DNA of 64,000 nucleotides from Anaerolineae bacterium (lineage in GTDB: Bacteria; Chloroflexota; Anaerolineae; Anaerolineales; E44-bin32): positions 18,539 through 82,538 of the forward strand of contig DUET01000025.1 of assembly GCA_011192015.1 (NCBI GenBank). Reading direction: 5' to 3'. A model generated the notes under the pieces. That model was not told the DNA's origin. It saw only the letters and a list, made by a program, of their open reading frames with translations, and ran no database searches. The translations under genes were made by a program, and so were the position numbers. Numbering within the stretch: the first letter of the stretch is position 1; each line of letters opens with the position of its first letter. Below are positions 26,859 to 50,468 of this stretch, one piece after another.

Positions 26859-26861
26859 CCG

Positions 26862-29137: not shown

Positions 29138-29149
29138 GAGCGCAGAGCG

Positions 29150-31420: not shown

Positions 31421-32941
31421 TCAATCGAGGGCGCTTCTTGCGTAGATCAGCATGCCTTCACTGCCGTACATGTCGGTGGGGATGGTCTCGATGCGCGTGT
31501 ACATGTGCTCGAATTCGGGATCGCGCAGCAGGGTGTGGCGGCCATAGACCTCGAGTATGACCAGGTAATCGGGCTCGAGATCCGTGATCAGGCGTGTAGG
31601 AATGGCGTAATTGATCTCATAGTCGGCTGCGGGGAGGGGGTAGTAGCGCGTGGCTTCGGTGGAGATCAGACCGACCGTATCGAGGATGGGCGCGTCGGTC
31701 AGGTAGCCCAACGTGCCGATATCGCCTGCAGCCAGGACCTGACCAGGTTGGATCTCATCCACCAGAGCGATAGCTACCTGTTCGTACAGTAATTCAAGAC
31801 GAATGAAAGCCATCTCGGGAGCGGGGCGATCAGGACCGTGATCCGGATGCAGTCTCCAGGTGCGGAGCGAAAGCGCCACGGCCAGCGCTGCGAAAACGGT
31901 CGTCAGATGGTGGAACTTCAGGCTGCGCCCCAGACGTTCGATCCCCAGAAAGACTCCCAGGAAGAACATCGGCAAGGGCGGGACGAGATACCAGCGGAAG
32001 AGCAGCGGGTTGGCCAGCGCGAACACGGCGAAGTAGATCCAGGGATAGGAGAGCATGGGCCAGGTTTCCGGTTGGCGGCGGATGATCTCCAAACTGCCGA
32101 TGACATGCAGAACAGGGTACAGCAACAACCCGGCTCCGATCCACCACAGACCGAAGGTCTCGTGCGCCAAAAACGGCGTGGCATAGTGCTGAAGCAGACG
32201 CACCAGACCGGCTTCTGGCGGCAGGAGGTAGGCAGCGGTTTTGGCTGTGATCGAATGGGGGATCGGATTGCCATAGAACCAGAAGCCAAAGGCGGCCCAT
32301 GCGAGAAGGGGTAGGGTGAAGGCTGCAATCTCCCCGAGTGAGATGCGTATGGGCTTGCGGTTGAAACGACCTTCCGGAAGGGTTTGCCGCAACCGTTCGA
32401 GCACGAGCGGGCCCACGAGGAGCAGTGAGTCGGGGCGCGTGAGTAGACAAAGGCTTGCCAGGAGAGCGGTCGGTTTTGGGCATCGAGAGACATACATGTA
32501 CAATGTAGCCATCATGAGAGCGATCAGGACACTGGTCTCCATGCCTCCGATGGCGAAGGTGACTGAGAAAGGCGCCACGGCCCACACGAACGCCGCTGCC
32601 AGACCCGCGTTGCGGCGATCGAGGCGATCTGCCATTCGTATGAACAGCCAGCAGGTGATCCCATCGGCGAGTGTGTTGAGCAACCATGCGATCATGGGTA
32701 GGGGAGCTTGGCTCCCACCGCTCACCGATCCCAGACCTGTGAGGATCAAGGCGTACAGGGGGGAAGTCGTGCCCAGGACGGCTTCACCGGGGTTGTATAC
32801 CAACCCCGCGCCTCCGAGCACATTGCGAGCATAGCGGAAGGTGATGTAGGCATCATCCACGATGCGGGGTCCGGGGATGAGACGGACCCCGACTGCAAGC
32901 AGGATGACGAGGATCTCGACGTGGATTCTGAACTTTCGCAC
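31421..32941 (-). CDS. GT-C-like polytopic membrane protein 1 (DDAYI...YARN family), paralogue of 45502-46989
   Basis: GTG at 32941 gives VRKFRIHVEILVILLAVG...RIVDDAYITFRYARNVLGG...GTTSPLY. About 506 aa, many TM segments, and a soluble C-terminal domain containing AAGDIGTLGY. The 212 codons upstream in the track ORF are basic low-complexity, and most of that stretch lies antisense to the neighbouring gene. Confidence 0.7.
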   Translation of the reverse strand: MRKFRIHVEILVILLAVGVRLIPGPRIVDDAYITFRYARNVLGGAGLVYNPGEAVLGTTSPLYALILTGLGSVSGGSQAPLPMIAWLLNTLADGITCWLFIRMADRLDRRNAGLAAAFVWAVAPFSVTFAIGGMETSVLIALMMATLYMYVSRCPKPTALLASLCLLTRPDSLLLVGPLVLERLRQTLPEGRFNRKPIRISLGEIAAFTLPLLAWAAFGFWFYGNPIPHSITAKTAAYLLPPEAGLVRLLQHYATPFLAHETFGLWWIGAGLLLYPVLHVIGSLEIIRRQPETWPMLSYPWIYFAVFALANPLLFRWYLVPPLPMFFLGVFLGIERLGRSLKFHHLTTVFAALAVALSLRTWRLHPDHGPDRPAPEMAFIRLELLYEQVAIALVDEIQPGQVLAAGDIGTLGYLTDAPILDTVGLISTEATRYYPLPAADYEINYAIPTRLITDLEPDYLVILEVYGRHTLLRDPEFEHMYTRIETIPTDMYGSEGMLIYARSALD

Positions 32942-33010
32942 GCGCGGATTATACAGGCATCGAAAGAGAGCGGAAAGTCCGGCAGGATATCCCTTCCCTG
33001 GGGATGGACC

Positions 33011-34582
33011 GTGCTGGGCGTTGCGCTGCTGGCGGTAGTGTGGAAGATCGTGCTGCTTGCCCTGGATGCCTTCCCCTTCAACGCCGATGAGGCCATCGTG
33101 GGTTTGATGGCGCGTCACATCCTGCAGGGGCGCTGGCCGGTGTTCTTCTACGGCCAAGCCTACATGGGGAGTCTGGATGCGACTCTGGTGGCAGGCGCCT
33201 TTGGCGTTATTGGTGCGAAGGTGATCGCCATTCGTGCCGTGCAGTGCCTGCTCTACATGGGCACGGTGGCAACGACCATGATCCTGGTCCGGCAGGGATT
33301 GGGTTCCAGGAGGGCAGCGATTGCTGCCGGATTGTTGATGGCCCTGCCCCCCGTCAACGCCACGCTGTACTCGACAGTCTCGCTCGGTGGGTACGGAGAA
33401 GCGCTGCTTATAGGCAACCTTCTCCTGATGCTGAGCCTTTCGATTCGACAGCGGCCGGCAAGGATTTGGCCGTTCTTCGTCTGGGGATTGCTGGCGGGAT
33501 TGGGCTTCTGGACCTTCGGACTCAGCCTGGTGTACATCCTTCCAACGGGGTTCTTGCTCCTGGCTTCCCTTTGGCAAAGCAAGGAGAGGCGAGCGTTATC
33601 CGCAGCGGTTATCGTTGCTGGAATACTCGTTGGCGCCGGTCCATGGATCGGGCATGCGTTGGTGGAGGGGCTCGGCCCCCTTATGGCTGAACTTGGTGGT
33701 TCGGCCATCGATGTGGGAAATGGCGGGAACCCCATTTGGAGCCGTTTGTCGAATGCGCTGCTCTTCGGTTCGACCGTCACCATAGGACTGCGGCCTCCTT
33801 GGGAGGTGAGTTGGCTGGCATTGCCGCTGGCACCGCTGGCGCTGGCTTTCTGGGGAGGTGTATTGATCCATACTTTCTCCTCCCTGCGCGCGCCGGATCA
33901 AAGCGGTCGAGGCTGGGAACTGCGCTGGCTGCTGCTCGGCGTGGCTGCTGTGTTGTTTCTGGGCTTCCTGTTGACGCCCTTTGGCGGTGATCCCTCGGGC
34001 CGCTACTTTGTACCTCTGGTAGTGCCGATGGCGATCTTGGGGGCAGATTTCGTGGAGAGGTTGTGTTTGCGAACCGGCAGAGGGGCGGTGTACGGTCTGC
34101 TGGCCATTCCGCTGATCTTCCATCTCTGGGGGACCTTTCAAGCGCTTGCCGAAAGCCCGACCGGCCTGACGACCCAGTTCGATCCCATAACCTGGATTGA
34201 TCGTGACCATGATGCCGAGTTGATCACGTTCCTGGAACAAAACGGCGAGCGGTACGGCTACACAAACTACTGGGTCGCTTATCCGCTGGCGTTCCTCTCG
34301 GACGAGCAGTTCATCTTCGTACCCATGCTTCCATACCATCAGGATTTCCGTTATACAGAACGTGACAACCGCTATCCACCCTACGATGAGCTCGTGGAGG
34401 CAGCTTCCCAAGCTGCCTACATCACGACCCATCATCTCGAGCTCGACGAGCAACTGCGGGCGGCTTTTTCGGATTTGGAAGTCACCTGGCAGGAAGCGAA
34501 GATCGGCGATTACCAGATCTTCTACGCATTTTCGGAGAGGATTTCCCCTCACGAAATCGGGTTGGGGGTCAATCTGCCGTGA
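33011..34582 (+). CDS. GT-C-like membrane protein 2 (GT39/PMT_2/ArnT-like)
   Basis: After the first hydrophobic segment: FPFNADEAIVGLMARHILQGRWPVFFYGQAYMGSL. About 11 TM segments plus a C-terminal soluble domain. The start is uncertain: GTG 33011 was chosen, but GTG 32921 is also in frame. Confidence 0.7.
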   Translation: MLGVALLAVVWKIVLLALDAFPFNADEAIVGLMARHILQGRWPVFFYGQAYMGSLDATLVAGAFGVIGAKVIAIRAVQCLLYMGTVATTMILVRQGLGSRRAAIAAGLLMALPPVNATLYSTVSLGGYGEALLIGNLLLMLSLSIRQRPARIWPFFVWGLLAGLGFWTFGLSLVYILPTGFLLLASLWQSKERRALSAAVIVAGILVGAGPWIGHALVEGLGPLMAELGGSAIDVGNGGNPIWSRLSNALLFGSTVTIGLRPPWEVSWLALPLAPLALAFWGGVLIHTFSSLRAPDQSGRGWELRWLLLGVAAVLFLGFLLTPFGGDPSGRYFVPLVVPMAILGADFVERLCLRTGRGAVYGLLAIPLIFHLWGTFQALAESPTGLTTQFDPITWIDRDHDAELITFLEQNGERYGYTNYWVAYPLAFLSDEQFIFVPMLPYHQDFRYTERDNRYPPYDELVEAASQAAYITTHHLELDEQLRAAFSDLEVTWQEAKIGDYQIFYAFSERISPHEIGLGVNLP

Positions 34583-34729
34583 GCTTCCCTCTGAGCGAAA
34601 GCGACCTCCATCCAGAACCATCCCTGACTTCTCAGTTGCCTCAGCGTCGAAATTGGCGCAGAATGGTTCATCCATGATGCATGCAAATCTGGAGGTCGGA
34701 TAGGAGAGGCTTCCGAAGAGAGGAAACCC

Positions 34730-36202
34730 TTGAGCTTCCGGCGATTCATTTTGATCCTCACATTGCTGGCGATCCTGATCATGGCGGCGCGTGTGTCGGT
34801 AGACACCGACACATGGTGGCATCTGCGCGCCGGATCGTGGATGGTTGAGAACGGCAGCATCCTGAGAACCGATCCCTTCAGCCTGACGCGCCAGGGGCAG
34901 GATTGGATCTATCCCGGGTGGTTGGCGCAGGTGGCGTTGTTCGGCGTTTACCAAGCCATGGGGTATGCGGGCTTGAATCTCTTTACGGCCCTGATGGTCG
35001 TCCTTGCCCTGAGTCTTCTATGGCCGGCGATGGACGGTCCACCTCTGATGAAGGCTTTTGTGCTGGTGCTTGCGGCGACGGCTTCCGGGGTCTATTGGGC
35101 GGCGCGCCCGCACATTCTCTCGTTCGTCTTTTCGGCGGCCTTTCTATTGATCCTCGAACATGTCCAACGCGGCAGGCTGCGCCTGCTGTGGGTGCTACCG
35201 CCGCTGATGGCGCTCTGGGTGAACGTGCATGGGGGTTTCGCCTTCGGCTTCATGTTCCTGGTGTTGGTTCTGGCAGGTGAGGTAGTCGATCTGCTTATCG
35301 ACATCGGGCCACGAAAGCGAAGATTGGCCGAGGCTTGGCAAGCGCGAAAATCAATCATCCTTGGTCTGGTGCTCGTGGGATTGGGCTGCGCCTTGGCCTG
35401 CATGCTCAATCCTCATGGTCCGCAGATGCTGCTCTATCCGTTCAAGACGGTTTCCATCGGTGTGCTGAGAGAATACATCCAGGAGTGGCAATCCCCTGAT
35501 TTCCATCAATTGGAGCTGCAGCCTTTCCTGCTGATGCTGTTCCTGAGCATGGGCGCCCTGGCGCTTTCTCCACGCCGGAAGACAGCCGCAGAAATGCTGC
35601 TGCTCTTCGTGCTGGCGGCCATGAGTCTCGTTGCGGCGCGCAACATTGCCCAATTTGCCCTCATCGGAGCCATCGTCCTGGCGAGGCATGTTCATGCAGT
35701 CCTCGATCCACTGCTCAGCGATCTTCCCAAAGGGAAGCAGGTCCCTGAACGACTCGCTCGAACCATCAACATCCTCTTGCTGTTGCTCGCTGCTGCGTTG
35801 GCAGTCATCAAGATTGCCTCCGTGAGCACGGTCGAGATCAACCAGCAGGCGATCGATGATCGTCACCCCACGCAAGCCGTGGCGTATCTTCAGGATCATC
35901 TTCCTGAGGGACCGCTCCTCAATTCCTACAACTGGGGAGGTTACGTGGTCTGGGAACTCTATCCCGACTATCTGAGTTTCGTCGACGGTCGCACAGATCT
36001 ATTCGATGACGAGATCCTCAATGACTACCTTCGTGTGTGGCGAACGGATCCGTATTGGGAAGGTGTATTGGAGAGATGGGACATCCGTCTGACCCTGCTT
36101 GAACCTGAAGCCCCCTTGAACGATGCGCTGTTGAATCGAGGTTGGCAGCAGCTCTATGCGGATGAACAGGCCGTCGTCCTGGCGTGGGATGGCAGCGAAT
36201 GA
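34730..36202 (+). CDS. GT-C-like membrane protein 3 (D-T-D-T-W-W-H-L motif)
   Basis: TTG start with GAGAGGA 5 nt upstream. RVSVDTDTWWHLRAGSWM follows TM1. Polytopic, with a C-terminal soluble domain (YNWGGYVVWE...FVDGRTDLFDD). Confidence 0.7.
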   Translation: MSFRRFILILTLLAILIMAARVSVDTDTWWHLRAGSWMVENGSILRTDPFSLTRQGQDWIYPGWLAQVALFGVYQAMGYAGLNLFTALMVVLALSLLWPAMDGPPLMKAFVLVLAATASGVYWAARPHILSFVFSAAFLLILEHVQRGRLRLLWVLPPLMALWVNVHGGFAFGFMFLVLVLAGEVVDLLIDIGPRKRRLAEAWQARKSIILGLVLVGLGCALACMLNPHGPQMLLYPFKTVSIGVLREYIQEWQSPDFHQLELQPFLLMLFLSMGALALSPRRKTAAEMLLLFVLAAMSLVAARNIAQFALIGAIVLARHVHAVLDPLLSDLPKGKQVPERLARTINILLLLLAAALAVIKIASVSTVEINQQAIDDRHPTQAVAYLQDHLPEGPLLNSYNWGGYVVWELYPDYLSFVDGRTDLFDDEILNDYLRVWRTDPYWEGVLERWDIRLTLLEPEAPLNDALLNRGWQQLYADEQAVVLAWDGSE

Positions 36203-37278
36203 GAAAGGCTTTTCTTCCTACCATCCTCGCATTCTTCATCGTTGCAGCCTTCGTGATCACGATCCTTGCCACGCATGCTTGGGATCCGATGGCCTTCGTG
36301 CTGGAGCGGCCTGGCGATGTTCCCGACGATCAGACATGGGGTATCGGCTACGATGGGCAGCAAGCTTATGCCATCGCCGTGGATCCATTGGGGGCATCAT
36401 CCAAGCTGGATCATCCTGCCTATCGCTACCAGCGAATTCTCTATCCGATGCTTGCACGCATCCTTGTATTGGGTGTCGAGGATTTGATCCCTTGGAGTTT
36501 ACTCGTCGTGAACATGCTGGCGGCGTGCGCCGGCGTGTTCTTCGTATCGCAGCTGCTCATCGAACGCGGCGTCAGCGTTTGGTGGGCGCTGGTGCCTCTC
36601 CTCTCGTTCAACTATCTGATCAGCATGCGTTTGGATTTGAACGAGCCGCTGGCTTACGCCCTTGCCCTGGGAGGTCTTTGGGCCTTCGAGCGCAAGCGAA
36701 TGGGCTGGGCGTTGGTGGCATTTGGTCTGGCTGGGTTGGCGCGGGAAGCCGCGCTTGTGTTTCCGATCGGTTTGGTGCTCTGGTTGTGGCTGAAGCGGAG
36801 ATGGCGCTCCGGGGCGGCCATCCTTGCTGCAAGCGCCTTGCCCTATGTGGGCTGGGCGCTATGGGTGTCTCGTTGGTTGGGGAAATCCCCCTTTGCGACT
36901 ACACTGGCAAAACCGCTGGTCATTCCCTTCGCAGGGCTCTTCGTCATGGAAGGCGTCGAAGGCAGGGTGATGGTCGGGATTTGGGCTGTCCTTCCAGCGC
37001 TGATCGGAGGCGCGGCGGGATTGGTGCATTTGATGCGGAATCGATCTGCATTGGAATCCCCGGAAGGATTACTCGTACTGACCAACGCCGCACTTATCGC
37101 CATACTGCCTTCGCCGACTTGGGTGGATGCATTGGCGGTACTTCGCCTGGGTGTTGGATTGATGATCGCGCTCCTGCTTTGGTTGGCGAGAGCGCGCCCG
37201 TCATGGCTGCTTTTCACTGCCGGTTTGTGGGGACCTTCGCTGCTGCTTCTGTTCATGATCCCGGGGTTCATACGATGA
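36199..37278 (+). CDS. Polytopic membrane protein 4 (GYDGQ-x-Y / YRYQRILYP motif), glycopolymer-assembly-like
   Basis: The ATG overlaps the upstream stop (ATGA). WGIGYDGQQAYAIAVDP and HPAYRYQRILYP lie in the first loop. About 359 aa, about 9 TM segments. Confidence 0.65.
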   Translation: MRKAFLPTILAFFIVAAFVITILATHAWDPMAFVLERPGDVPDDQTWGIGYDGQQAYAIAVDPLGASSKLDHPAYRYQRILYPMLARILVLGVEDLIPWSLLVVNMLAACAGVFFVSQLLIERGVSVWWALVPLLSFNYLISMRLDLNEPLAYALALGGLWAFERKRMGWALVAFGLAGLAREAALVFPIGLVLWLWLKRRWRSGAAILAASALPYVGWALWVSRWLGKSPFATTLAKPLVIPFAGLFVMEGVEGRVMVGIWAVLPALIGGAAGLVHLMRNRSALESPEGLLVLTNAALIAILPSPTWVDALAVLRLGVGLMIALLLWLARARPSWLLFTAGLWGPSLLLLFMIPGFIR

Positions 37279-38474
37279 ACAAGTTCAGGAATCCATCAGC
37301 GAAGTCAAGGAATGGAGCGGACGCATATCTGCCCATGCTCAGCTTGCTGTGTGTGCGCTTCGTCATGCTGGCTGCGCTGCCCTTCGAGACCTTGATTTCC
37401 TATGGGGATTATCATCACTTCTTCAAACTTGCCCGTTTGAGCGCAGAGGGGGGCGGTCTGCCGTTTATCGGCCATTGGATCGAATTCCCTCCGCTGTTCC
37501 CGTATCTCTCCCTGGCCATCGAGCGCCTCGTCAACGGACAGTTGCATGCCTATGTGTACTCCATTGCTCTTTTGATGCTCGTCTTTGATCTGGGCAATCT
37601 TTGGCTCTTCTCGCGCCTGATCCAACGCGTTGCGGGCGAATTGCGTGGTGAGCGGATGACCTGGCTTTACATGGTGTTCCTCTCGCTGCCCGCCTTTGGA
37701 TGGTGGACGTTCGAGCCCATGGCGGTGTTCCTCATGCTGCTCTCGCTGTGGTTGATCCTGGAACGCAGACCGCTGGGCGCGGGATTGGCAGCAGGCTTCG
37801 GTTTCCTGACAAAGCTGTTTCCGGTGCTTTCCGTAGTGGTTGCCTGGCGGTTTCGTTCCAGACATATGGCGATCTGGACCACATTGACAGCTGTCGTGGT
37901 TATCGTGGCAGTGTTGGGGACGTTGTTTGCGGTCAATCCAAGCATGGCGAGCGCCTCGCTGCGTTCACAGCTCAACAAGGGATCATGGGAGACCGTCTGG
38001 GCATTGATTGATGGTAATTTCGGTACCGGCACTTTCGGCCCCCTGCAGGAACGATTGGATCCCGACTTCGCGCTTCAACCGATCGGGAAACCGGCCAGGA
38101 TCCCGCTCTGGATTCCCACGCTTGTGGCTGGATTGATCTTGCTTTGGATCTTCATCCGGGCGAAATCAGTCGACGATCGATCGGCCTTCCCCTTTCTGGT
38201 ATGCTTCTGGTGTATCCTCTTGCTCTGGTCGCGCGGTTGGAGCCCGCAGTGGGTTGCTTATTTAATCCCGCTCCTGTTTCTCTGTTTTTCCCAAAACCGT
38301 GCGCTGATCTATGGAGTAAGCTTGATCATGATCGCTTTGCTCGAGTGGCCGGTCTTACTCTCCCGCGGGCGCTTCGATCTACTCTGGCTGCCGATCATCG
38401 TACGAACCTTGTTGCTGGTCATGATGGCGGTGGAAAGTGGCTGGTCCGTTTTCCGGAAACCGGAATGGACCTAG
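37275..38474 (+). CDS. GT-C-like membrane protein 5 (DUF2029/GT87-like)
   Basis: The ATG overlaps the upstream stop (ATGA). MNKFRNPS..., with YGDYHHFFKLARL...WIEFPPLFPY after TM1. About 399 aa, polytopic. The 373 upstream codons of the 772-aa track ORF are a frame shadow of gene 4. Confidence 0.7.
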   Translation: MNKFRNPSAKSRNGADAYLPMLSLLCVRFVMLAALPFETLISYGDYHHFFKLARLSAEGGGLPFIGHWIEFPPLFPYLSLAIERLVNGQLHAYVYSIALLMLVFDLGNLWLFSRLIQRVAGELRGERMTWLYMVFLSLPAFGWWTFEPMAVFLMLLSLWLILERRPLGAGLAAGFGFLTKLFPVLSVVVAWRFRSRHMAIWTTLTAVVVIVAVLGTLFAVNPSMASASLRSQLNKGSWETVWALIDGNFGTGTFGPLQERLDPDFALQPIGKPARIPLWIPTLVAGLILLWIFIRAKSVDDRSAFPFLVCFWCILLLWSRGWSPQWVAYLIPLLFLCFSQNRALIYGVSLIMIALLEWPVLLSRGRFDLLWLPIIVRTLLLVMMAVESGWSVFRKPEWT

Positions 38475-38487
38475 CAAGGAGCCCAAC

Positions 38488-39732
38488 TTGCGTGCATTGA
38501 GATTCCTGCAGTTTCGAAGGATGATTCCCGTTTTCATCGTCCTGATGTTGCTGGCTTTGGGAATAGCGAACTACCAATTTGCGGTTCGTGCTTTGGGCGG
38601 TAACGATTTCCTGCCAGGGTGGGTGGCGGCACGCCAGTGGTTATCGGAAAGCTTCAATCCCTACGAGCCGGCGGTCAGCCAAGAAGCCCAGGAGATGATC
38701 TATGGTCGTCCTGCCAATCCGGAGGATGGGGAGACCCAGGCATTGTTTCTTTATCCACTCTGGGCGATGATCCTTTACGTCCCTCTCAGCCTGCTTCCGT
38801 ACCCTTTGGCGCTGGCTCTGTGGATGACGATCCTCGAGTTGGGATTGCCGTTCCTCATGTGGTTGGGAACGCGTTTCTTCCGATGGAAGCCATCGCCACG
38901 CATGCTTGTGGCATTGATGGTGTTTCCGATCGTCTGCTACCACGGCATTCGCTCGATTGTGATTGGGCAATTTGCCGTGGTTGAAATGCTGCTGATCGTT
39001 GCATCGCTGTTGGCAATCCAACGCCGCCAGGATGTGTTGGGAGGGGTGCTGCTGGCGCTGACGTTGATCAAACCGCAGCTATCGCTCCCGCTTATGCTCT
39101 TCATCCTCCTTTGGTCGATATCCGCGGGCAGATGGCGCCTTCTGACCACAACGCTTCTCGTTCCCATCCTGCTGCTTGTGATTTCCATTTTGGTGAACCG
39201 GGAATGGATTCTCTGGTGGCTGCGTTCGATTGTGCGCTTTGTTGAATACGTGGACATTCGGCCTCCGATCCTGGCCATCGGAGCTAATCTCTCCACCATC
39301 GGTTTCTGGGTGGCCTTGGGACTAATGATCGTGCTTGTGATCTTCATGATCCTGCAGTGGTTCAGAGCTTTCGATAAAACGGATCACTGGTTCCAATGGA
39401 CAACATCGCTGACGCTTGTGATCACAAGCCTGATCACGATACGAACCACAACAGCCAATCTCGTTTTGACCATCCCTGCGTTGATCCTCATCCTCAAGGT
39501 GTGGCTGGATCGTAAGAAGGAAGCGGGAACACGAACGGCTTGGATTGTAGCTTCGGTGTTGATGGCGATCATCTGGCTGCTTTTCTTTGTGATCCCCCAG
39601 GGGCCATTTGAACATCCCATACTCTATCTACCACTTCCGCTGTTTGCATTCATTGGCTTGTTGTGGTCGAGATGGTGGATCACAAGCGGGCCTGGCGCCT
39701 TGATCGATTCCGAACCGCTTGTGTGGGTTTGA
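38488..39732 (+). CDS. GT-C-like membrane protein 6 (DUF2029/GT87-like)
   Basis: TTG 38488 with AAGGAG 6 nt upstream. GGNDFLPGWVAARQWL follows TM1, and there is an LTLIKPQLS motif. About 414 aa, polytopic. Confidence 0.7.
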   Translation: MRALRFLQFRRMIPVFIVLMLLALGIANYQFAVRALGGNDFLPGWVAARQWLSESFNPYEPAVSQEAQEMIYGRPANPEDGETQALFLYPLWAMILYVPLSLLPYPLALALWMTILELGLPFLMWLGTRFFRWKPSPRMLVALMVFPIVCYHGIRSIVIGQFAVVEMLLIVASLLAIQRRQDVLGGVLLALTLIKPQLSLPLMLFILLWSISAGRWRLLTTTLLVPILLLVISILVNREWILWWLRSIVRFVEYVDIRPPILAIGANLSTIGFWVALGLMIVLVIFMILQWFRAFDKTDHWFQWTTSLTLVITSLITIRTTTANLVLTIPALILILKVWLDRKKEAGTRTAWIVASVLMAIIWLLFFVIPQGPFEHPILYLPLPLFAFIGLLWSRWWITSGPGALIDSEPLVWV

Positions 39733-39890
39733 AATCCAGGCGGTGGGATCGTGCTCCTGAATTCATCATGACCATCGATGCAGCGAGTGTTGTGTCCCAT
39801 CCGTCTGCTCTTCCCGCTGTATCGAATAGCAAGTAATATCCCGTTCGCTGCGCAAGGTATCGGATGTCATAGGATCCAGACCCACTTTCC

Positions 39891-39915
39891 CGCCCGCATG
39901 CCTGGGGGCGTTTTT
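39891..39915 (+). terminator. Candidate intrinsic terminator inside the 546-bp gap of the membrane-protein array
   Basis: CGCCC / GGGCG stem with a 10-nt loop, followed by TTTTT. Confidence 0.4.
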
Positions 39916-40278
39916 CGTTGCAGATAATCCCGGCAAGGGCGAATGTCCGAGTTGGCGCTGGATTGGACGAAGATCGTGTGCTTCAGAATCTCGGTATTGC
40001 GCAAAGGAGATCGACAACGGCATTCCAGCCTGAAACAAGCATCTGAATTGCTTTGGTCATTGGGCGGAGAACATGTACTATAGTGAGGAATCCGTACTGT
40101 TCTTGGGTTTCCAGGATGATATGCAGAATGATGCTCGAAGCTCGATATCCAGGGAACATGGCATGCACGATAGTTATCCCAATTCTCATGAGAGGGGACT
40201 CTCAGTTCGTGTCCTTCGATGCCGATCCTTCACTCGAATTGCCAGGCTGGAAGGTTGCGATTTTCAAGGGTGTATTCC

Positions 40279-42315
40279 ATGAGCCATGAAACGAGACCAC
40301 AAGGTGCGCGTGCTGGGCTAGAAACGGCGTGGATCCTGATCAGTGTGCTTTGGGGCATTATGGTCTTCCTGGCCTACTATGTGGTGCACAAACCGGTGAC
40401 GATCGATGAGGCGGTGGCCGTGGCCCGCCTGGCCCTGATCCTCCTCGGATGGTTAGGAACGATCGCCCTGGCCAATCTGATCGGGCAGGCGATCCAACCT
40501 CTTCTGGCGTATCTGCGCGAGAGGACTGCCTTGGCCTTGCGGACTGGCTTCGGACTTGCCGTGCTGGGGTACTTCCTGCTTGCCTTGGGTGCGGTCCGTG
40601 GGTACTGGCCGCTCGTGACCTGGATTGTGACGGGGGTGGCCCTACCGATTGCCCTGCCTAAACTGATCTCGGATATTCGCACATCATTGCCCATCCGTCC
40701 CCACACCAACATCCAGCGCGCATTGGCAGCTTTTACGGTCCTCATGCTGGTCATCGCCTTCCTGCTCGCGTTGGCTCCACCAACGGCATGGGATTCGCTC
40801 GTGTACCATCTTACAGGTCCCAAGCTGTATTTACAGGAAAGGGGATTGCATCATGATCTGGATCTTCCCTATTTGGGATTTCCCCAAGCGGGAGCGATGC
40901 TCTTCCTGTGGGGTCAGATGCTGGTGGGACCGGAGCTGGCCCAATTGATCCATCTGACGTTCGTGATCCTGACCTTGATGCTCCTCTCGCATATGGTCAG
41001 AACCTTCTCACAGACGAGCCGTTGGTTGACGGCGGCCCTGCTTCTGGGTGTTCCCACAGCGGTCATGCTGGCCTCCTGGGCTTATGTCGAGTGGATCACC
41101 ATGTTCGCTGTGTTGGCAAGTTTCCTGCTCATCCGGGAGGAAGGCGGGGGCGCTTCTGCTGGAAAGCAGGGGGATCGATGGCGGTTGTGGATGATGGCTC
41201 TGGCAGGCTTCTTCGCCGCCATGGCGTTCAACGCCAAGTACACCGCCATCGGCGCTCTTCTGGGTTTGGTGGCGGTGGTCCTGCTGGAGCGGCGTTCATG
41301 GCGAGGTTTGGGCGTGTTCATCGGTGTGGCTGTTTTGTCCGTCCTGCCCTACTTGCTGAAGAATCTGGTGCTCACAGGGAACCCGGTCTATCCCTTCTTC
41401 TTGGATGGAAAGTTCTGGGACAGCGCGCGTGCCTATTGGTACAGTCGTGGGGGAACGGGCTTGACACTCCTGCAACTGCTCATCTCTCCATGGGAAGCGA
41501 CGATCTTCGGCTTGGAGGGGGGAGTGGTGGTGGGGCATGCTCCTTATAGCGCCACGGTTGGCCCGGCTTTATTGGCTTTGATGCCGCTCCTGGCGCTGCG
41601 TTTCCGCCAACGCAACCAGGAAACGCGACGATTGCTGCGTGCCTTGCTGCTGCTTTGCGGAATTGCCTTCATCGTCTGGATCGTACAATGCGCCTCCTCG
41701 CTCCTGCTGGTTCAGACGCGCCTGCTTTTCCCGATCCTGCCGCTGGCGGCAATCCTCGCAGGAGTGGGTTTTGATAGTTTGTCCGAGAAGGGGCGATGGA
41801 CGCGGCTGGTTCACCTCATCTTTGGCACGCTGATCGGCGTGATGCTGGCGTTGAATGCCTTTGAGGGGATCATCCATGCTGTGGAGGCTTCCCCGGTACG
41901 AGTCTTGCTTGGTTTGGATACGGAGGCTGAATATCTGGCTTCACATCTGGGTGAGCATGCTTATGTGATGGCGGATGTCAATCAACTTCCGGAGGGAGCG
42001 CGCATCCGGTTCCTTTGGGAACCAAGAAGCTATTACTGTGCTGGTCATGTGATCTGCGAACCGGATGCTTTGCTCGATCGCTGGTGGCATGATCACCAGC
42101 AGTTGGCGAATCCCGGCGAGATTGCAGAGAGTTGGCGCGCAGAGGGGGTCACGCATGTCCTCATCTTCCACGCCGGCAGCCAGGCTGTCCGAGCGGAGGG
42201 CTTCGATCCTCTCAACGAAGATGCCTGGGATGCGTTGGATGAATTCATGGAAGCGCATTTGGTGAAGCTGACGCTGCGGGACGGCGGCTACGCGATTTAC
42301 GCTCTGCGTCAGTGA
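40279..42315 (+). CDS. GT-C-like membrane protein 7 (GT39-like with an N-terminal TM extension)
   Basis: About 678 aa. The motif APPTAWDSLVYHLTGPKLYL follows an N-terminal block of TM segments. There are many TM segments and a ~170-aa C-terminal soluble domain. Confidence 0.65.
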   Translation: MSHETRPQGARAGLETAWILISVLWGIMVFLAYYVVHKPVTIDEAVAVARLALILLGWLGTIALANLIGQAIQPLLAYLRERTALALRTGFGLAVLGYFLLALGAVRGYWPLVTWIVTGVALPIALPKLISDIRTSLPIRPHTNIQRALAAFTVLMLVIAFLLALAPPTAWDSLVYHLTGPKLYLQERGLHHDLDLPYLGFPQAGAMLFLWGQMLVGPELAQLIHLTFVILTLMLLSHMVRTFSQTSRWLTAALLLGVPTAVMLASWAYVEWITMFAVLASFLLIREEGGGASAGKQGDRWRLWMMALAGFFAAMAFNAKYTAIGALLGLVAVVLLERRSWRGLGVFIGVAVLSVLPYLLKNLVLTGNPVYPFFLDGKFWDSARAYWYSRGGTGLTLLQLLISPWEATIFGLEGGVVVGHAPYSATVGPALLALMPLLALRFRQRNQETRRLLRALLLLCGIAFIVWIVQCASSLLLVQTRLLFPILPLAAILAGVGFDSLSEKGRWTRLVHLIFGTLIGVMLALNAFEGIIHAVEASPVRVLLGLDTEAEYLASHLGEHAYVMADVNQLPEGARIRFLWEPRSYYCAGHVICEPDALLDRWWHDHQQLANPGEIAESWRAEGVTHVLIFHAGSQAVRAEGFDPLNEDAWDALDEFMEAHLVKLTLRDGGYAIYALRQ

Positions 42316-42364
42316 AACCAGGCTCAGTGTCCTGCAACGATGAATCGATGAGGCGATCCGTACA

Positions 42365-43903
42365 ATGTCTGAACAAGGCGTTTGTATGGCAGCGATGATG
42401 AGAAAAGCCTTGAGAGAGCCCTGGATCTTGATCCTGATCCTGCTTGTGGCGCTGCTTGTGCGTCTGCCATGCCTGACGAGCAGGCCGCTTTGGTACGACG
42501 AGGCGTTCTCGGTGCTTTTCTCGAGCCAGGGACCATCGGCGATGGCATACGGAACGCTCACGCAGGAAGCAGGAGTTGCTGCGGACATCCATCCCCTGGG
42601 CTACTACACGTTGCTCTGGCTTTGGGCAAAGATCGTGGGAACCACTCCCTTTGCCGTTCGCTCCCTTTCCCTGATACTCGGTCTGGGGATCGTCGCACTG
42701 GGGTATGGGCTGGCGAGAGAGCTATTTAGCGAGCGCATCGCCATGCTGGCAGGATGGGTGCTGGCGTTCTCGCCTTTTCAAGTGCATTACGCTCAAGAAG
42801 CACGCATGTACGCCCTGTTGGCTTTGTTCATGCTCGGGGCTACGCTGGCCTTCTGGCATGCACTACATGGCGGTTCGAACTGGTTATGGCTGGCTTTTTC
42901 CATGCTGGCTGCTGCTGGCATGTATGTACACAATCTGGCGGCTCTCTATTTGGTCTGTCTGGCACTCACGCCGTTGTTTCTCTGTCGATGGAGAGCTCTG
43001 GGAAAGACCGTGCTGGCTGGCTTGGGTGCCATTTGCCTCTACCTGCCTTGGCTGCTGCGTCTGCCCAGTCAAGTGGCACGTTTGCAGTGGGCATATTGGA
43101 TCGAGCCTCCAAGATTGACCGAACTGGTGCGGACGTTGCTGGTCTTCGTCTCCTATCTTCCCCTGCAACGATGGCTATTGCCGATTGTCTTGTTCTTGGG
43201 CATCCTGATGGTTGTCGTTGGGTGTTGGGCGACCCTGCGCGCTTTGAGAACCGTGGGGAGAAGTGGAAGGCGGGCGGTATGGCTGGTTGGTCTTTCAGGG
43301 GGGCCGGTGCTGTTGATGTTCTTGGTTTCTCAATGGCAGCCCATCTATCTCGAGAGGGCGATGCTACCCGCAGGAGCGATCTTCACCATCTGGCTGGCGT
43401 GGTGCTTAGGAACTCCTGTGCTGCCCTTGCCCGCCCGGCGGGTTGCTTGGTTGGCGCTGGGCTTGGCTTTCGTGGTGGGATTGTTCTCGCACTTTTCGTA
43501 TCTCGGGTTTCCATACGCTCCCTTTGGGGAAGTCAACGCATTGTTGCGCGAACAAGCAACGAGCGGGGAGATCGTACTGCACAGCAACAAGATCACTGCC
43601 TTACCCGCAGCCTATGACGATCCAGAAATCGAACACCGCTATCTTGCGGATCCGCAAGGAACGGGATCGGATACGCTGGCTCCTGCCACACAGCTTGTGT
43701 TGGGCATGATAGCGGATGATGACGCCGCCGGTGCTGTGGGAAGTAGTCCAGGAGTATGGTTCGTCATCTTCTCTCGGGAGATCGAGGATTATCTTGTTCT
43801 TGGATTGGAAGAACATCCTGCTCTGGGATGGCTGCAATCGGAGTTCGAGTGCAGAGATGAGTATGCGTTTGGGGAACTTCATGTCTACCACTTCATACGA
43901 TAG
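42365..43903 (+). CDS. GT-C-like membrane protein 8 (GT39/PMT_2-like)
   Basis: RLPCLTSRPLWYDEAFSVLF follows TM1. Polytopic with a C-terminal soluble domain. The start could instead be the ATGs about 30 nt downstream (MMRKAL). Confidence 0.7.
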   Translation: MSEQGVCMAAMMRKALREPWILILILLVALLVRLPCLTSRPLWYDEAFSVLFSSQGPSAMAYGTLTQEAGVAADIHPLGYYTLLWLWAKIVGTTPFAVRSLSLILGLGIVALGYGLARELFSERIAMLAGWVLAFSPFQVHYAQEARMYALLALFMLGATLAFWHALHGGSNWLWLAFSMLAAAGMYVHNLAALYLVCLALTPLFLCRWRALGKTVLAGLGAICLYLPWLLRLPSQVARLQWAYWIEPPRLTELVRTLLVFVSYLPLQRWLLPIVLFLGILMVVVGCWATLRALRTVGRSGRRAVWLVGLSGGPVLLMFLVSQWQPIYLERAMLPAGAIFTIWLAWCLGTPVLPLPARRVAWLALGLAFVVGLFSHFSYLGFPYAPFGEVNALLREQATSGEIVLHSNKITALPAAYDDPEIEHRYLADPQGTGSDTLAPATQLVLGMIADDDAAGAVGSSPGVWFVIFSREIEDYLVLGLEEHPALGWLQSEFECRDEYAFGELHVYHFIR

Positions 43904-43924
43904 CCGAAGCGTGAGACCTCAAGG

Positions 43925-45505
43925 ATGAACATGAGCCGGCGTCGATGGATCGTGCTGCTTATGTTGGGACTGTGTGTCGCAGGTTTGGGAGCCGTGTGGG
44001 TGCAAGCGCCCGGTTACATGGATGCCGACTACTACCAAGCCACGGCGGAACGTCTCGCCTCAGGGCAAGGTTTCACGGAACCCTTTCTTTGGAACTACCT
44101 GGATGACCCCAACGAAATACCGCATCCATCGCATATGTACTGGATGCCGCTGACGAGCCTCGTTGCTGCAGCACCGATGGCCATCTTTGGGATCGGTTTT
44201 CGCATTGCCCAGATTCCCTTCATTCTGCTGACCGCCGCATTGCCCTTGCTGACAGCGTCCACGGCTCTGCACCTGGGAATGGGGGAGCGCAAGGCATGGT
44301 TGGCGGGTTTGTTGGCTTGCACTTCTGGATTCTATCTGCCGTATTTCGTGACTACGGATAATTTCTCGATCTTTGCCGTTGTAGGAAGCGCTGCGCTTTG
44401 GATGATGGCGGTGGCTGTGCAACGACCGGCTGCGCATCGATGGATTCTCATTGGTGCGTTTGTTGGTTTGGCGCACATGGCGCGGGCAGATGGCTTGCTG
44501 CTATTGGTTCCAGCCATGCTCGCTGTCTGGTATGCCGGAGACAGGCGTTTCTCGGCTGCGGTACTCGTTCTGGTGGGGTATGGGGTGCTGATGGCGCCTT
44601 GGTGGACGCGCAACATCCTGCTTCTGGGGACCCCGTTACCGCAGGGAGCGAGCCGGTCGATCTGGCTGGTGCGCTACGATGAGCTTTATTCCTATCCGGC
44701 TTCGATCCTCACCCCGGAACGTTGGTGGAGTGCCGGGTGGCAGAAGCTACTCCAGGCGCGAGGTCAAGCCTTGCTATCCAATTTACAGAGCCTCCTGGCG
44801 GTGAATGGTTATGTGTTCCTTGCACCGCTGATGATCGTGGGCATCCAACGCGGTTGGAAGCGACCTCTCGTTCGCATAGCCATGACCTATCTCATCCTGC
44901 TCATGATCGTTATGAGCCTGGTCTTCCCGCATATCGGCGCTCGTGGTGGTTTCTTCCATTCCAGCGCGGCTCTGATGCCTGTGCTCTGGGTCCTGGCTGT
45001 AGAAGGTTTGGAGAGGATCGTCTCCTGGGCAGGGGAGAGGCGTGGCTGGGTACCCGAACAATCCTTGGTCGTTTTCAATACGGCAGCGATCGCGCTGGGG
45101 GCGGCTCTGGCATTGTTCGTTTATTGGGGGCGTGTGATCGGTCCTGATCCATCGCAGCCTGTTTGGTCATCATCGGATGCGCTCTACAGCGATGTCGGAG
45201 AACAGCTGAAAGCACTCGATCCCGAGCCGGGGATCGTTGCCGTGAACAATCCGCCAGGTTTTTACCGAGCCACTGACCTTGAAGCGGTTGTCATCCCGAA
45301 CGGAAATCCCGAAACCCTGTATCAAGTTGTCGAACGATACGACGTGGAGTGGATTATCCTCGAGGCCAATCATCCAGAAGCGCTGCAGGATTTCTACGCA
45401 TTGGGCGTGGATATCGATTGGCTCGAAACCGTGGTTACGCTTGCCGACCGTGAGGATCAAGCGGTGCACCTGATGCGCGTTCGGGCTTCTGAGGGGATGC
45501 CATGA
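43925..45505 (+). CDS. GT-C-like membrane protein 9 (ArnT/PMT_2-like)
   Basis: APGYMDADYYQATAERLASGQGF follows TM1. 526 aa, polytopic, with a C-terminal soluble domain. Confidence 0.7.
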   Translation: MNMSRRRWIVLLMLGLCVAGLGAVWVQAPGYMDADYYQATAERLASGQGFTEPFLWNYLDDPNEIPHPSHMYWMPLTSLVAAAPMAIFGIGFRIAQIPFILLTAALPLLTASTALHLGMGERKAWLAGLLACTSGFYLPYFVTTDNFSIFAVVGSAALWMMAVAVQRPAAHRWILIGAFVGLAHMARADGLLLLVPAMLAVWYAGDRRFSAAVLVLVGYGVLMAPWWTRNILLLGTPLPQGASRSIWLVRYDELYSYPASILTPERWWSAGWQKLLQARGQALLSNLQSLLAVNGYVFLAPLMIVGIQRGWKRPLVRIAMTYLILLMIVMSLVFPHIGARGGFFHSSAALMPVLWVLAVEGLERIVSWAGERRGWVPEQSLVVFNTAAIALGAALALFVYWGRVIGPDPSQPVWSSSDALYSDVGEQLKALDPEPGIVAVNNPPGFYRATDLEAVVIPNGNPETLYQVVERYDVEWIILEANHPEALQDFYALGVDIDWLETVVTLADREDQAVHLMRVRASEGMP

Positions 45506-46989
45506 CGATCCAAGAGCGGCGCAGGACCCAAGGATTGAATTTGGGATTGGTGTTGGCGATCGTTCTGTCGATCGGCTTCTACCTGTGGATGAGTTGGCGA
45601 ACACTCGGACTTGCATTCCCCCTGGACGATGCATGGATCCATCAGAGCTACGCCCGCAACCTCGCGCTGCGGGGCGAATGGGCTTTTCTGCCCGGCCAAC
45701 CCAGCGCGGGCTCCACGTCCCCTCTTTGGGCGGCGGTCCTGGCCGGGGGGCATGCCTTGGGATTGGATCCTCGGGCTTGGACCTATGGCATGGGCACGAT
45801 CCTGCTTGGGATCACAGCCTGGCTTGGCGCGCGGTGGGTTTCCCAACGTCAAGGGAGTGAGCGCTCCTGGCATTGGCTGGCCGCGTTGCTGCTGGTCTTC
45901 GAATGGCACTTGGTTTGGGCCGCGATTTCTGGAATGGAAGTGCCTGCGATGGCCTTGTTGGTCGTCGTTGTCCTCTACGCGCTGGATGGGAACCGCTGGC
46001 GAGCTCTCTTCATCGGCTTCCTGATCGGCTTGGGCGTTTGGCTGCGTCCGGATGCGGTGCTGCTCGCTTTGGCTGCGGCTTGGGTAATCATGACGCGCGA
46101 ACGTTTCCAAATCAGGAGGATCCTGAAGGCTTTTGGTGGACTGCTGCTCGGGATGGCGCTTCCCATCGCGCCCTATTTAGTCTTCAATCGCTTACTCTCT
46201 GGCGCATGGTGGCCAACAACGTTTTACGCCAAGCAGGCAGAGTATGCCATACTCCGGCAAACGCCTCTGCTGCAACGAGTGGTCGAGCAAGCCGGTCTGC
46301 CTTTGGTGGGCGTGATTGCGCTGCTGCTTCCGGGCATCGTGCTCGGTGGGGTGAGGGCGATCCGCAGTCGGCAGTGGTTTCGGTTCGCCCCCTTGCTTTG
46401 GGTTTGTCTGCATCTGGGAGCATATGCCCTGCGTCTCCCACTGGACTACCACTACCAGCATGGCCGCTACGCCATGCCAACGGTACCGATATTGCTCATC
46501 TTGGGAGTGGAAGGTCTCCTGGGATGGTTACAGCTAGATACAGAGACTGTGTATAAAAGGGTTATCTCACGCGCATGGCTGGCGAGTGTCATCATTGTCG
46601 CGGCCATTTTCTGGTTCCTTGGCGCGCAAGCCTACGCACGCGACGTAGCCATCATCGAGAGTGAAATGGTGGCCACGGCACATTGGGTACGAGAGAACAC
46701 CCATGAGGATGATCTCATTGCAGCTCACGATATCGGCGCCATGGGGTACTTCGGAGAGCGCGAGATTTTAGACCTTGCAGGTCTTGTGGATCCGATCGTG
46801 ATTCCATACATTCGAGACGAACAGGCGTTGGAAGCCTTGTTGGATGCGCAACAGGCTGACTATCTTGTAACTTTTCCTGGTTGGTACCCACAATTGATCT
46901 CCGGAGGGACGCAAGTATTCACTACGAACGGCTCCTTCAGCCCTTTGGCGGGTGGTGAAAACATGACCGTGTATCTTTGGCGAAAATAG
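45502..46989 (+). CDS. GT-C-like membrane protein 10 (DDAWI...YARN family), paralogue of 31421-32941
   Basis: The ATG overlaps the upstream stop (ATGA). FPLDDAWIHQSYARNLALRGEW...GSTSPLW follows TM1, and the C-terminal domain contains AAHDIGAMGY. Confidence 0.7.
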   Translation: MTIQERRRTQGLNLGLVLAIVLSIGFYLWMSWRTLGLAFPLDDAWIHQSYARNLALRGEWAFLPGQPSAGSTSPLWAAVLAGGHALGLDPRAWTYGMGTILLGITAWLGARWVSQRQGSERSWHWLAALLLVFEWHLVWAAISGMEVPAMALLVVVVLYALDGNRWRALFIGFLIGLGVWLRPDAVLLALAAAWVIMTRERFQIRRILKAFGGLLLGMALPIAPYLVFNRLLSGAWWPTTFYAKQAEYAILRQTPLLQRVVEQAGLPLVGVIALLLPGIVLGGVRAIRSRQWFRFAPLLWVCLHLGAYALRLPLDYHYQHGRYAMPTVPILLILGVEGLLGWLQLDTETVYKRVISRAWLASVIIVAAIFWFLGAQAYARDVAIIESEMVATAHWVRENTHEDDLIAAHDIGAMGYFGEREILDLAGLVDPIVIPYIRDEQALEALLDAQQADYLVTFPGWYPQLISGGTQVFTTNGSFSPLAGGENMTVYLWRK

Positions 46990-46993
46990 GTGT

Positions 46994-47023
46994 TTGCTCC
47001 TATTGACTTGACTATGCTATACT
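46994..47023 (+). promoter_or_regulatory. Candidate promoter for the two-component operon, with a TTGAC-TTGAC direct repeat in the spacer
   Basis: TTGCTC (46994-46999), an 18-nt spacer, then TATACT (47018-47023). The repeat TTGACTTGAC lies at 47003-47012. Confidence 0.35.
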
Positions 47024-47052
47024 CGCCGCAAGTGCCAAAGAAAGGAAAAATC

Positions 47053-48972: not shown

Positions 48973-49119
48973 ATGCTGTACGCTCCGAAAGAGAAAGGCC
49001 AGGGCCTCGTAGAGTACGCCTTGATTCTTGTTTTGGTCGCGGTCGTCGTGATTGTCATTCTGGCATTGCTTGGCCCTGCTATCGGCAACGTTTTCAGCAA
49101 CATCATTTCAAACATCTAA
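48973..49119 (+). CDS. flp: Flp-family (type IVb / Tad) prepilin
   Basis: 48 aa, below the ORF-track cutoff: MLYAPKEKG|QGLVEYALILVLVAVVVIVILALLGPAIGNVFSNIISNI. It has the G/xxxxEY processing motif followed by a hydrophobic helix. A purine-rich stretch (AAAAGGAAGGTGGTGA) lies upstream, and the gene sits directly upstream of cpaB. Confidence 0.85.
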   Translation: MLYAPKEKGQGLVEYALILVLVAVVVIVILALLGPAIGNVFSNIISNI

Positions 49120-50429: not shown

Positions 50430-50468
50430 ACTAGCCAATGGGGGATGATTGAGGGAATGGAGGCCTTG

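Follow-up and report, generated by a model that had tools for sequence, protein, structure and literature searches.

In mycobacteria and corynebacteria, many glycosyltransferases of the GT-C superfamily (PimE, MptA/B/C, EmbA/B/C and AftA-D) work outside the membrane of a bacterium that lacks lipopolysaccharide (LPS), where they use polyprenyl-phosphate sugars to build a lipoglycan and a wall polysaccharide, namely lipomannan/lipoarabinomannan (LM/LAM) and arabinogalactan (AG). The genes of these enzymes lie in several small clusters, and the aftA-embCAB region is the densest of them. Similarly, in the lumen of the eukaryotic endoplasmic reticulum (ER), a series of GT-C enzymes (ALG3/9/12/6/8/10) extends a lipid-linked glycan from dolichyl-phosphate sugars on the non-cytoplasmic face of the membrane, after which the glycan is passed on by STT3, itself of GT-C type. 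The three-component periplasmic systems of bacteria (GtrA/GtrB/Gtr*, ArnC/ArnE-F/ArnT and the GT136 pentofuranose systems), in which one GT-C decorates a glycan made elsewhere, follow the logic of a polyprenyl-phosphate sugar synthase combined with a flippase and a GT-C (PMC11127046). Here we describe a stretch of 64,000 nucleotides from an Anaerolineae bacterium (contig DUET01000025.1; hereafter the window), in which, according to an open reading frame (ORF) listing, ten intact genes lie side by side at positions 31421-46989. They are termed G1 to G10 in order of position and encode polytopic membrane proteins of 359-698 aa. Fold or profile evidence supports all ten as GT-C glycosyltransferases, and we lean, somewhat beyond even chances, towards reading the array as an assembly line at the outer face of the membrane that would draw on polyprenyl-phosphate sugars to make an envelope glycoconjugate.

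The evidence for GT-C membership is direct for eight of the genes and indirect, but consistent, for G2 and G5. Pfam thresholds were reached by G6 (GT87) and by G8 and G9 (PMT_2), and G1, G2 and G5 gave sub-threshold scores with these GT-C families. The fold was assigned by structure for G3 and G4, from AlphaFold models, and via homology for the other eight (Pfam or PDB profile matches and hhalign). When ortholog alignments built from 80 GTDB loci were compared all against all with hhalign, G1, G2, G7, G8, G9 and G10 proved to be interlinked at 84-100% probability, G5 was joined to G1 (90.6%) and to G4 (86.8%), and G4 to G6 (66%); G3 was linked to none of the other nine. By these criteria the ten appear to fall into four groups, that is, the AftB-like G1 and G10, the PMT_2/ArnT-like G2, G7, G8 and G9, the GT87/PimE-like G4, G5 and G6, and the orphan G3 with its STT3/DPY19-like fold. 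Besides, seven members share a homologous architecture of a transmembrane module plus a C-terminal domain, the hhalign alignments extending through the C-terminus. An earlier note, made from the letters of this DNA alone, had named PMT_2 for several of the genes and GT87 for two, which proved right, and had taken the ten for GT-C-like proteins, a proposal that now has fold or profile evidence behind every member. A single mutual detection, between G1 and G10, was obtained by blastp among the ten. Recent tandem duplication as the origin of the array is ruled out, as BLAST relates this pair alone and at 26% identity, and the ten are best viewed, from their sequences, as distinct old families.

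G1 and G10 are paralogues (25.6% identity by blastp, hhalign probability 100%) and were the only members to find a GT-C match in the profile searches of the PDB, which covered G1-G4 and G6-G10. Their ortholog profile matches mycobacterial AftB (9dlf_C, E=5e-12) over the whole transmembrane module, with profile positions 19-369 aligned to AftB 59-437 and the C-terminal domain outside the match. Mutagenesis or structure has identified D62 of the DD motif, E172, R221 and R372 of AftB as catalytic or donor-binding residues (PMC12041299). The first three correspond to D30, E135 and R169 in G1 and to D43, E146 and R182 in G10 and are invariant in both families, while R372 aligns with R322 of G10 (at least 90% conserved within the family), the Arg of G1 (R316) lying one position upstream. 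The DD motif is itself invariant (D29 and D30 in G1; D42 and D43, within DDAWI, in G10). With the NCBIfam equivalog model for AftB (NF041481), the score was 21.6 bits vs a cutoff of 1050, and the two are therefore distant homologues and not AftB orthologs. Further matches of G1 were sub-threshold (PMT_2 at 17.9 bits, Glyco_transf_22, AftB and AZOBR_p60025), and G10 matches the NCBIfam putative glycosyltransferase family LA_3751/LA_3752 (1.8e-13). The likeness to the mycobacterial enzymes thus comprises detectable AftB homologues that retain the catalytic DD, E and R, together with a resemblance of G4 and G6 to PimE/GT87; beyond the AftB-like pair, however, it stays at the level of the fold or the Pfam superfamily. 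Unlike in mycobacteria, genes for the synthesis of decaprenylphosphoryl arabinose (DPA; none in the window) or polyprenyl-phosphomannose (PPM) are absent from the vicinity, and ten GT-C genes are contiguous here, in a member of the Chloroflexota.

At the other extreme, G3 gave no match to Pfam or NCBIfam models, its profile found nothing in the PDB, and 52 G3 relatives searched against Pfam at E up to 1 returned noise only. An AlphaFold2 (AF2) model from a deep alignment (predicted local distance difference test score, pLDDT, of 90.9) was compared with the PDB by Foldseek, and all 23 matches at E<=0.001 were GT-C proteins (STT3/OST, DPY19, AglB, PglB, ArnT, AftA and AftD), with E-values down to 1e-8 and TM-scores normalised to the query (TMq) of 0.45-0.60. 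The closest of these structural matches were oligosaccharyltransferases (OSTs) and a C-mannosyltransferase, and the isolated C-terminal globular domain of AglB also matches the C-terminal domain of G3. The WWDYG motif is absent from G3, where the equivalent position reads SYNWGGY. We accordingly rejected G3 as a true STT3-type oligosaccharyltransferase, on the grounds that it has neither WWDYG nor a sequence-family signal, and kept the fold resemblance alone. The family is abundant: more than 1,700 matches were found in a 90%-clustered database, all of them unnamed or 'hypothetical' and mostly from metagenome-assembled genomes (MAGs) of Anaerolineales, along with at least 582 stretches of GTDB species genomes and 33,831 representative clusters (50% identity) at E<=1e-3, or 8,456 at E<=1e-30. 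G3 thus seems to represent a very large, uncurated orphan GT-C family that the Pfam and NCBIfam models used here leave unmatched.

Among the GT87/PimE-like members, G6 belongs to Pfam GT87 (PF09594) with 54.4 bits vs a cutoff of 25. G5 reached 23.8 bits against the same model, and three of its orthologs gave full-length, equally sub-threshold matches of 16.8-18.5 bits. G4 had no Pfam match, but scored 157.7 bits vs a cutoff of 150 with NCBIfam NF046093 (AZOBR_p60025, 'cell surface glycopolymer formation protein'). Its AF2 model from a deep alignment (pLDDT 93.2) retrieved only GT-C folds among the top 21 Foldseek matches in the PDB (ALG9, PimE, ArnT, STT3, PglB, ALG12, ALG3 and PIG-U), the highest TM-score being that to PimE (9dm5, TMq 0.58). 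A single-sequence scan of GTDB genomes with G6 returned no matches, whereas the scan with the G3-family alignment did. The array accordingly parallels the ER N-glycan pathway in combining ALG/PimE-like enzymes (G4-G6) with an STT3-like fold (G3), although G3 stands outside the STT3 sequence family.

The remaining four members, G2, G7, G8 and G9, relate to PMT/GT39 and ArnT (GT83). Against Pfam PMT_2 (PF13231; gathering cutoff 26.1 bits), G8 scored 43.4 bits, G9 exactly 26.1 bits and G2, under the threshold, 21.8 bits. G7 itself had no Pfam match, yet full-length homologues with 37-39% identity pass the thresholds of both PMT (PF02366) and PMT_2. By hhalign, G2 was connected to G8 (97.5%), G10 (95.2%) and G9 (95.1%), G7 to G9 (97.6%) and G10 (93%), and G9 to G10 (98.5%). 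Weak matches linked G8 to Agl23 and MT1671, and G7 to NCBIfam LIC_10190. In relation to the PMT and ArnT enzymes, G8 and G9 reach PMT_2, G2 and G1 stay below it, homologues of G7 pass both models, and the first-loop motif is of the DE/DD type; in contrast to these enzymes, the array members have no MIR domains, their C-terminal soluble domains are unrelated to those described, and sequence searches with G2, G7, G8 and G9 found no solved relative. As to the NCBIfam families touched by G4 (above the AZOBR_p60025 cutoff) and, weakly, by G10 and G7 (the two Leptospira families LA_3751/LA_3752 and LIC_10190), these are annotation families with no traceable function, and a literature search found no mention of AZOBR_p60025.

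The ten families have in common an acidic residue in the first loop; across alignments of 11-82 orthologous sequences, it is either invariant or shows at least 90% conservation. These residues are D29/D30 in G1, D26/E27 in G2 (ADEAIV, numbered from the start at 33011), D27 in G3 (DTDTWWH, with D27, W30 and H31 invariant), D52 in G4 (GYDGQ, with Y51 and D52 invariant), D45 in G5 (YGDY, invariant), D40 in G6 (GNDF, with N39 and D40 conserved), D192 in G7 (WDSLVYH, with D192, Y196 and H197 invariant), D45/E46 in G8 (invariant, as are W43 and Y44), D33 in G9 (DADYY, invariant) and D42/D43 in G10. All motifs quoted in the earlier note exist in the sequence. It had granted an acidic motif to nine of the ten; those nine stand, but G4 has to be added, as GYDGQ holds the invariant D52. 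Its placement of the motif right after the first hydrophobic segment also applies in general, except for G7, which has four extra N-terminal helices and carries the motif after helix 5, preceded by a positively charged loop. Each motif lies 5-25 residues past a hydrophobic helix that is itself preceded by a tail with 2-4 Lys/Arg. By the positive-inside rule, the acidic motifs would thus be extracytoplasmic, in the position of extracytoplasmic loop 1 (EL1), as the earlier note had proposed, and the residue-for-residue alignment of the G1/G10 motif with the DD of AftB supports this orientation. As the helix counts of the crude hydropathy-based predictor are unreliable, the topology was drawn from the charge of the N-terminal tail and from homology. 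It is against this conservation that a non-catalytic role has to be weighed, in which some or all of the ten would be inactive GT-C-fold scaffolds or transport proteins, comparable to PIG-U in the GPI transamidase. PIG-U, a non-catalytic GT-C-fold subunit, does occur among the structural matches of G4. However, every family keeps an invariant or near-invariant acid at the catalytic EL1 position, and G1 and G10 retain the catalytic and phosphate-binding residues that AftB needs for activity, so that we consider such a role very unlikely.

The coordinates of the array and its neighbours are collected in Table 1. As the earlier note had listed them, G1 is encoded by the minus strand and the other nine genes by the plus strand, ATGA overlaps of 4 nt occur at G3/G4, G4/G5 and G9/G10, and 13 nt lie between G5 and G6; G7/G8 and G8/G9 are separated by 49 nt and 21 nt, respectively. 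The description of the array as uninterrupted is apt for the adjacency of the ten genes, but not for the 546-nt non-coding gap between G6 and G7. This spacer has a GC content of 51%, its sole ORF is antisense, 90 aa long and without a homolog, and no similarity to it was found elsewhere in the window or in 87 related loci; at locus L004, the closest full array, the equivalent spacer measures ~55 nt. It may harbour an internal promoter for G7-G10 and the regulator/kinase genes, or be the remnant of a lost gene. The start codon of the response regulator begins at the base right after the G10 stop, and regulator and kinase are probably co-transcribed with G10. For G2, the GTG at 32921 is more probable than the start at 33011, because it is the sole option that gives a charged N-terminal tail and a full first helix, and because the L004 ortholog has 552 aa. 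With this start, the divergent G1 and G2 share 21 nt at their 5' ends (32921-32941). Full-length orthologs with 40-68% identity exist in other species for all ten ORFs, which are therefore real genes and not chance ORFs. The plus strand shows a strongly negative AT skew (-0.20 to -0.27) between 36 and 46 kb, as expected from T-rich hydrophobic codons. An Rfam search of the window found no RNA family, and a promoter/terminator scan stayed at background level and was uninformative on operon boundaries.

Table 1. Features of the array and its surroundings in the window, with their occurrence among the 40 related loci that have full 10-kb flanks
Feature	Position	Strand	Description	Loci
Prepilin peptidase gene	7408-8286			
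YkuD-type L,D-transpeptidase	12289-13320	-		
TPR-rich protein	17600-20680	-	1026 aa	
TPR-rich protein	22177-22971	-	264 aa	
GldA/GldF/GldG-like ABC system	25914-29779		ABC_tran, ABC2_membrane, ABC_transp_aux/DUF7088, DUF4340	17/40
rpoD				28/40
G1	31421-32941	-	506 aa; AftB-like GT-C; C-terminal soluble domain	29/40
G2	32921 (preferred) or 33011 to 34582	+	553 or 523 aa; PMT_2/ArnT-like GT-C; C-terminal domain	33/40
G3	34730-36202	+	490 aa; orphan GT-C family, STT3/DPY19-like fold; C-terminal alpha/beta domain	
G4	36199-37278	+	359 aa; PimE/ALG-like GT-C, AZOBR_p60025 family; without soluble domain; accessory	5/40
G5	37275-38474	+	399 aa; GT87-like GT-C; accessory	7/40
G6	38488-39732	+	414 aa; GT87 (PimE/DUF2029) family GT-C	23/40
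Spacer G6/G7	39733-40278	none	546 nt, non-coding	
G7	40219 or 40279 to 42315	+	698 or 678 aa; PMT/PMT_2-superfamily GT-C; C-terminal domain	21/40
G8	42365-43903	+	512 aa; PMT_2 family GT-C; C-terminal domain; accessory	13/40
G9	43925-45505	+	526 aa; PMT_2-like GT-C; C-terminal domain	27/40
G10	45502-46989	+	495 aa; AftB-like GT-C, G1 paralogue; C-terminal domain	22/40 (undercount; flank often ends before G10)
Response regulator, NarL/DegU-type	46990-47745	+	Pfam Response_reg and GerE	19/40 (with kinase, downstream of array)
Histidine kinase, DegS-like	47758-48813	+	HisKA_3, HATPase_c, DegS	19/40 (with regulator, downstream of array)
Flp-type pilin candidate	48973-49119	+	48 aa	
Tad operon	49338-55181		cpaB, REC-domain cpaE, cpaF, tadB, tadC; secretin-less	
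ORF	55810-56691	-	293 aa; no Pfam match	
ORF	55966-56532	+	188 aa; ribosome hibernation factor-like	
ORF	56549-57688	+	379 aa; no Pfam match	
Mur ligase	61824-63224	+		

When the ten proteins, together with the flanking genes, were placed on 80 species loci, the homologues proved to be strongly syntenic and not scattered. Gene order was colinear in 63 of the 80 loci, and 25 of the 40 with full flanks contained six to nine of the ten genes. A near-complete copy is found at L004 (65% identity in G3), where G1-G9 follow one another in order up to the contig end, and nine of the ten genes are present on L031 and L042. The order of the core is fixed across species whose G3 orthologs are 40-69% identical to the window protein, and the block of rpoD, array, response regulator/kinase and Tad pilus operon is colinear across Anaerolineales species. 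A partial array was even found in Ca. Aquidulcis, of the class Limnocylindria. Because the block is colinear across species, most of them with six to nine of the ten genes, the array is a lineage trait of Anaerolineales, with core and accessory gene sets, and no oddity of one genome. The earlier note had singled out ten such genes in a row as special; the contiguous ten are real, but they are not peculiar to this genome. Two loci call for a comment on their records. L025 (JAIWHF010000093.1) shows the order PPase - rpoD - G1 - G2 - G3, which is typical of Anaerolineae, but its contig is assigned to a 'Methanosarcinales archaeon' MAG, probably a binning error. At L005 (contig_57446), gene calling broke up rpoD, the response regulator and the G10 ortholog into several short genes (~4200-5400 and 18400-20800), which probably reflects assembly frameshift errors in a long-read MAG and not real pseudogenes.

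This pattern of conservation bears on whether the ten enzymes share a product. They might instead constitute independent GT-Cs that decorate different envelope molecules, in the manner of Gtr or ArnT, and that lie together through shared regulation or genomic history. Single-GT-C three-component systems are widespread (PMC11127046), the families of the array are mutually as distant as unrelated GT-C families, and the accessory G4, G5 and G8 occur in only 5-13 of the 40 loci and give way to other GT-Cs in relatives. On the other hand, translational coupling through the ATGA overlaps and a core order kept over the above range of divergence argue against independent enzymes, as does the window itself, in which ten donor synthases or flippases to go with the enzymes are missing. 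Moreover, the architecture common to seven members suggests a common type of acceptor. On balance we find this explanation improbable. The assembly line is the most economical reading, with distinct conserved GT-Cs, translational coupling, fixed order and a core plus variable accessory genes as in O-antigen-type loci.

In such an assembly line, donors would be made by GT2 enzymes of the DPM1/GtrB/ArnC type and then flipped across the membrane, and the first-loop Asp/Glu of each enzyme would serve the transfer of a sugar from the polyprenyl-phosphate-linked donor to a growing acceptor. The genes for donor synthases and flippases would reside elsewhere in this genome and, in some relatives, inside the array. 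The ten would work one after another on a single product, an envelope glycoconjugate such as a lipoglycan or a wall-linked or sheath polysaccharide, and such sequential action seems most likely because ancient, distinct families have been kept in one-to-one orthology and fixed order. The producers would be monoderm, LPS-less filamentous bacteria; the Chloroflexota envelope has been described as devoid of the β-barrel assembly machinery (BAM) and of LPS, with outer layers suggested to be polysaccharide or protein (PMC13319060). The core of G1, G2, G3, G6, G7, G9 and G10 would build the common part, and the accessory G4, G5 and G8, or other GT-Cs and Wzy_C proteins in relatives, would add species-specific decoration. 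The DegS/DegU-like two-component system would probably tie expression to that of other surface structures, including the downstream Tad pilus operon. Use of polyprenyl-(pyro)phosphate donors by the ten is suggested by two indirect pointers, namely the phosphate-binding Arg residues of G1/G10 and the GT2 genes present in the arrays of seven relatives.

Several observations weigh against the assembly line. Clustering alone is no proof of a common product, since accessory genes come and go, and G3 stands nearly alone in a few genomes (L001, L081). Sequence profiles of G2, G3, G4, G6, G7, G8 and G9 gave no GT-C match in the PDB, and the assignment of G2 and G5 is a tentative one, made from sub-threshold Pfam scores and profile-profile links. 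The outward topology is a prediction that draws on the positive-inside rule and on homology. Among the scanned ORFs of the 64-kb window there was no donor synthase, flippase, primer-forming glycosyltransferase or sugar-nucleotide gene. Lastly, we know of no chemically characterised Anaerolineae glycan that could be matched with the locus.

The absence of donor, flippase and priming genes means that the pathway cannot be closed from the window sequence. Likewise, none of the 40 larger flanking ORFs scanned in the window encodes a GT-A or GT-B enzyme, a sugar-nucleotide enzyme, Wzx/Wzy or a polyprenyl-phosphate sugar synthase. The locus therefore differs from three-component systems in offering ten GT-Cs and, among these scanned ORFs, neither synthase nor flippase. 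The arrays of relatives come closer. The earlier note had seen no cytoplasmic glycosylation genes, which holds for the window, but in seven of the 80 related loci the array also encodes a GT2 that resembles polyprenyl-phosphate sugar synthases, a protein of 314 aa with C-terminal membrane helices whose best PDB relatives are the dolichol-phosphate mannose synthase DPMS (5mlz, 4e-18), ArnC and GtrB. A candidate flippase, an LPG_synthase_TM protein, is encoded inside the array in three of the 80 loci. An eleventh, PMT-like GT-C sits between rpoD and G1 in 20 loci, a Wzy_C+TPR protein lies inside the array in six (occupying the G4 position in L006), and a methyltransferase, an FrhB-like protein and a PIG-V-like GT-C also occur. 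These extra genes match the set to be expected around lipid-phosphate-sugar-dependent glycosylation at the outer face (compare PMC11127046). Taken further, the array might be the machine for the outer layer or layers of the Anaerolineae/Chloroflexota envelope and a bacterial counterpart of ALG plus OST, in which PimE/ALG-, PMT- and AftB-like enzymes would elongate a glycan outside the membrane and G3 would transfer it en bloc to a protein, to peptidoglycan or to a lipid anchor; in some species a Wzy_C-type ligase might take over the transfer from G3. This proposal is speculative and we give it little credence.

Peptidoglycan is a possible anchor for an array-built glycan, and the window encodes a Mur ligase as well as an L,D-transpeptidase of the YkuD type, so that the organism evidently makes peptidoglycan. 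Outside the array and immediately upstream of rpoD lies the GldA/GldF/GldG-like ABC system, which keeps this position in the loci counted in Table 1 and has an H+-PPase in its place in others. A possible role is the export of something connected with the array. Farther upstream, a histone-deacetylase-family gene is flanked by the two TPR-rich proteins, whose N-terminal TPR patterns are near-identical. Downstream, the 293-aa minus-strand ORF overlaps the hibernation factor-like ORF of the plus strand and may not be real.

The opposite flank of the array is occupied by pilus genes. The Flp-type pilin candidate (MLYAPKEKGQGLVEYALILV...) is encoded between the kinase gene and cpaB, and a prepilin peptidase gene is located 40 kb upstream. 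A Tad operon (cpaB/E/F) follows regulator and kinase in at least 19 relatives' loci. This neighbourhood raises the question of protein glycosylation, in which the PMT-like, AftB-like and STT3-like (G3) enzymes would modify secreted or surface proteins, notably the Tad pilin, directly from polyprenyl-phosphate sugars. PMT acts in this manner on Ser/Thr residues, and TfpW does so on Pseudomonas pilin. Several array members belong to the PMT superfamily, G3 is structurally closest to oligosaccharyltransferases and to a C-mannosyltransferase, with a C-terminal domain that matches the globular domain of AglB, and those relatives, even with a reduced array, keep the genes in the order rpoD - array - regulator/kinase - Flp pilin - cpaB/E/F. 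Furthermore, surface filaments of another member of the Chloroflexota bear probable O-glycans, for which the machinery is unidentified (PMC12488501). Yet ten distinct enzymes far exceed the transfer steps needed in known protein O- or N-glycosylation, and G3 has neither WWDYG nor an STT3 Pfam signal. The mature pilin candidate would comprise only ~37 aa and has no N-X-S/T sequon; adjoining operons may be mere inherited gene order, and the Tad operon persists where most of the array is lost (L081). Modification of proteins is thus an unlikely purpose for the array, in our estimate, and we retain the assembly line for an envelope glycoconjugate as the reading to pursue.

In terms of principle, the superfamily is known already, as is the logic of mycobacterial AG/LAM assembly, of the ER ALG/STT3 pathway and of bacterial three-component systems, and no new mechanism is implied. 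What is new is a contiguous, conserved array of ten (in relatives, eleven) different GT-Cs in Chloroflexota, the occurrence of AftB-like relatives outside Actinomycetota, and the very large orphan family of G3. Our literature search found no description of this locus or of GT-C arrays in Chloroflexi/Anaerolineae, and to our knowledge, which is not exhaustive in this respect, the array is the densest GT-C cluster described.

In summary, a conserved block with up to ten or eleven different GT-C genes beside rpoD provides a concrete, testable candidate for the machinery behind the extra envelope layers of Chloroflexota, a phylum abundant in sediments, sludge and soils. AftB-like enzymes, familiar from the mycobacterial cell wall, turn out to have distant relatives in another phylum as well. 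Were the product of the array identified, GT-C-driven envelope assembly of the mycobacterial style would extend beyond Actinomycetota.

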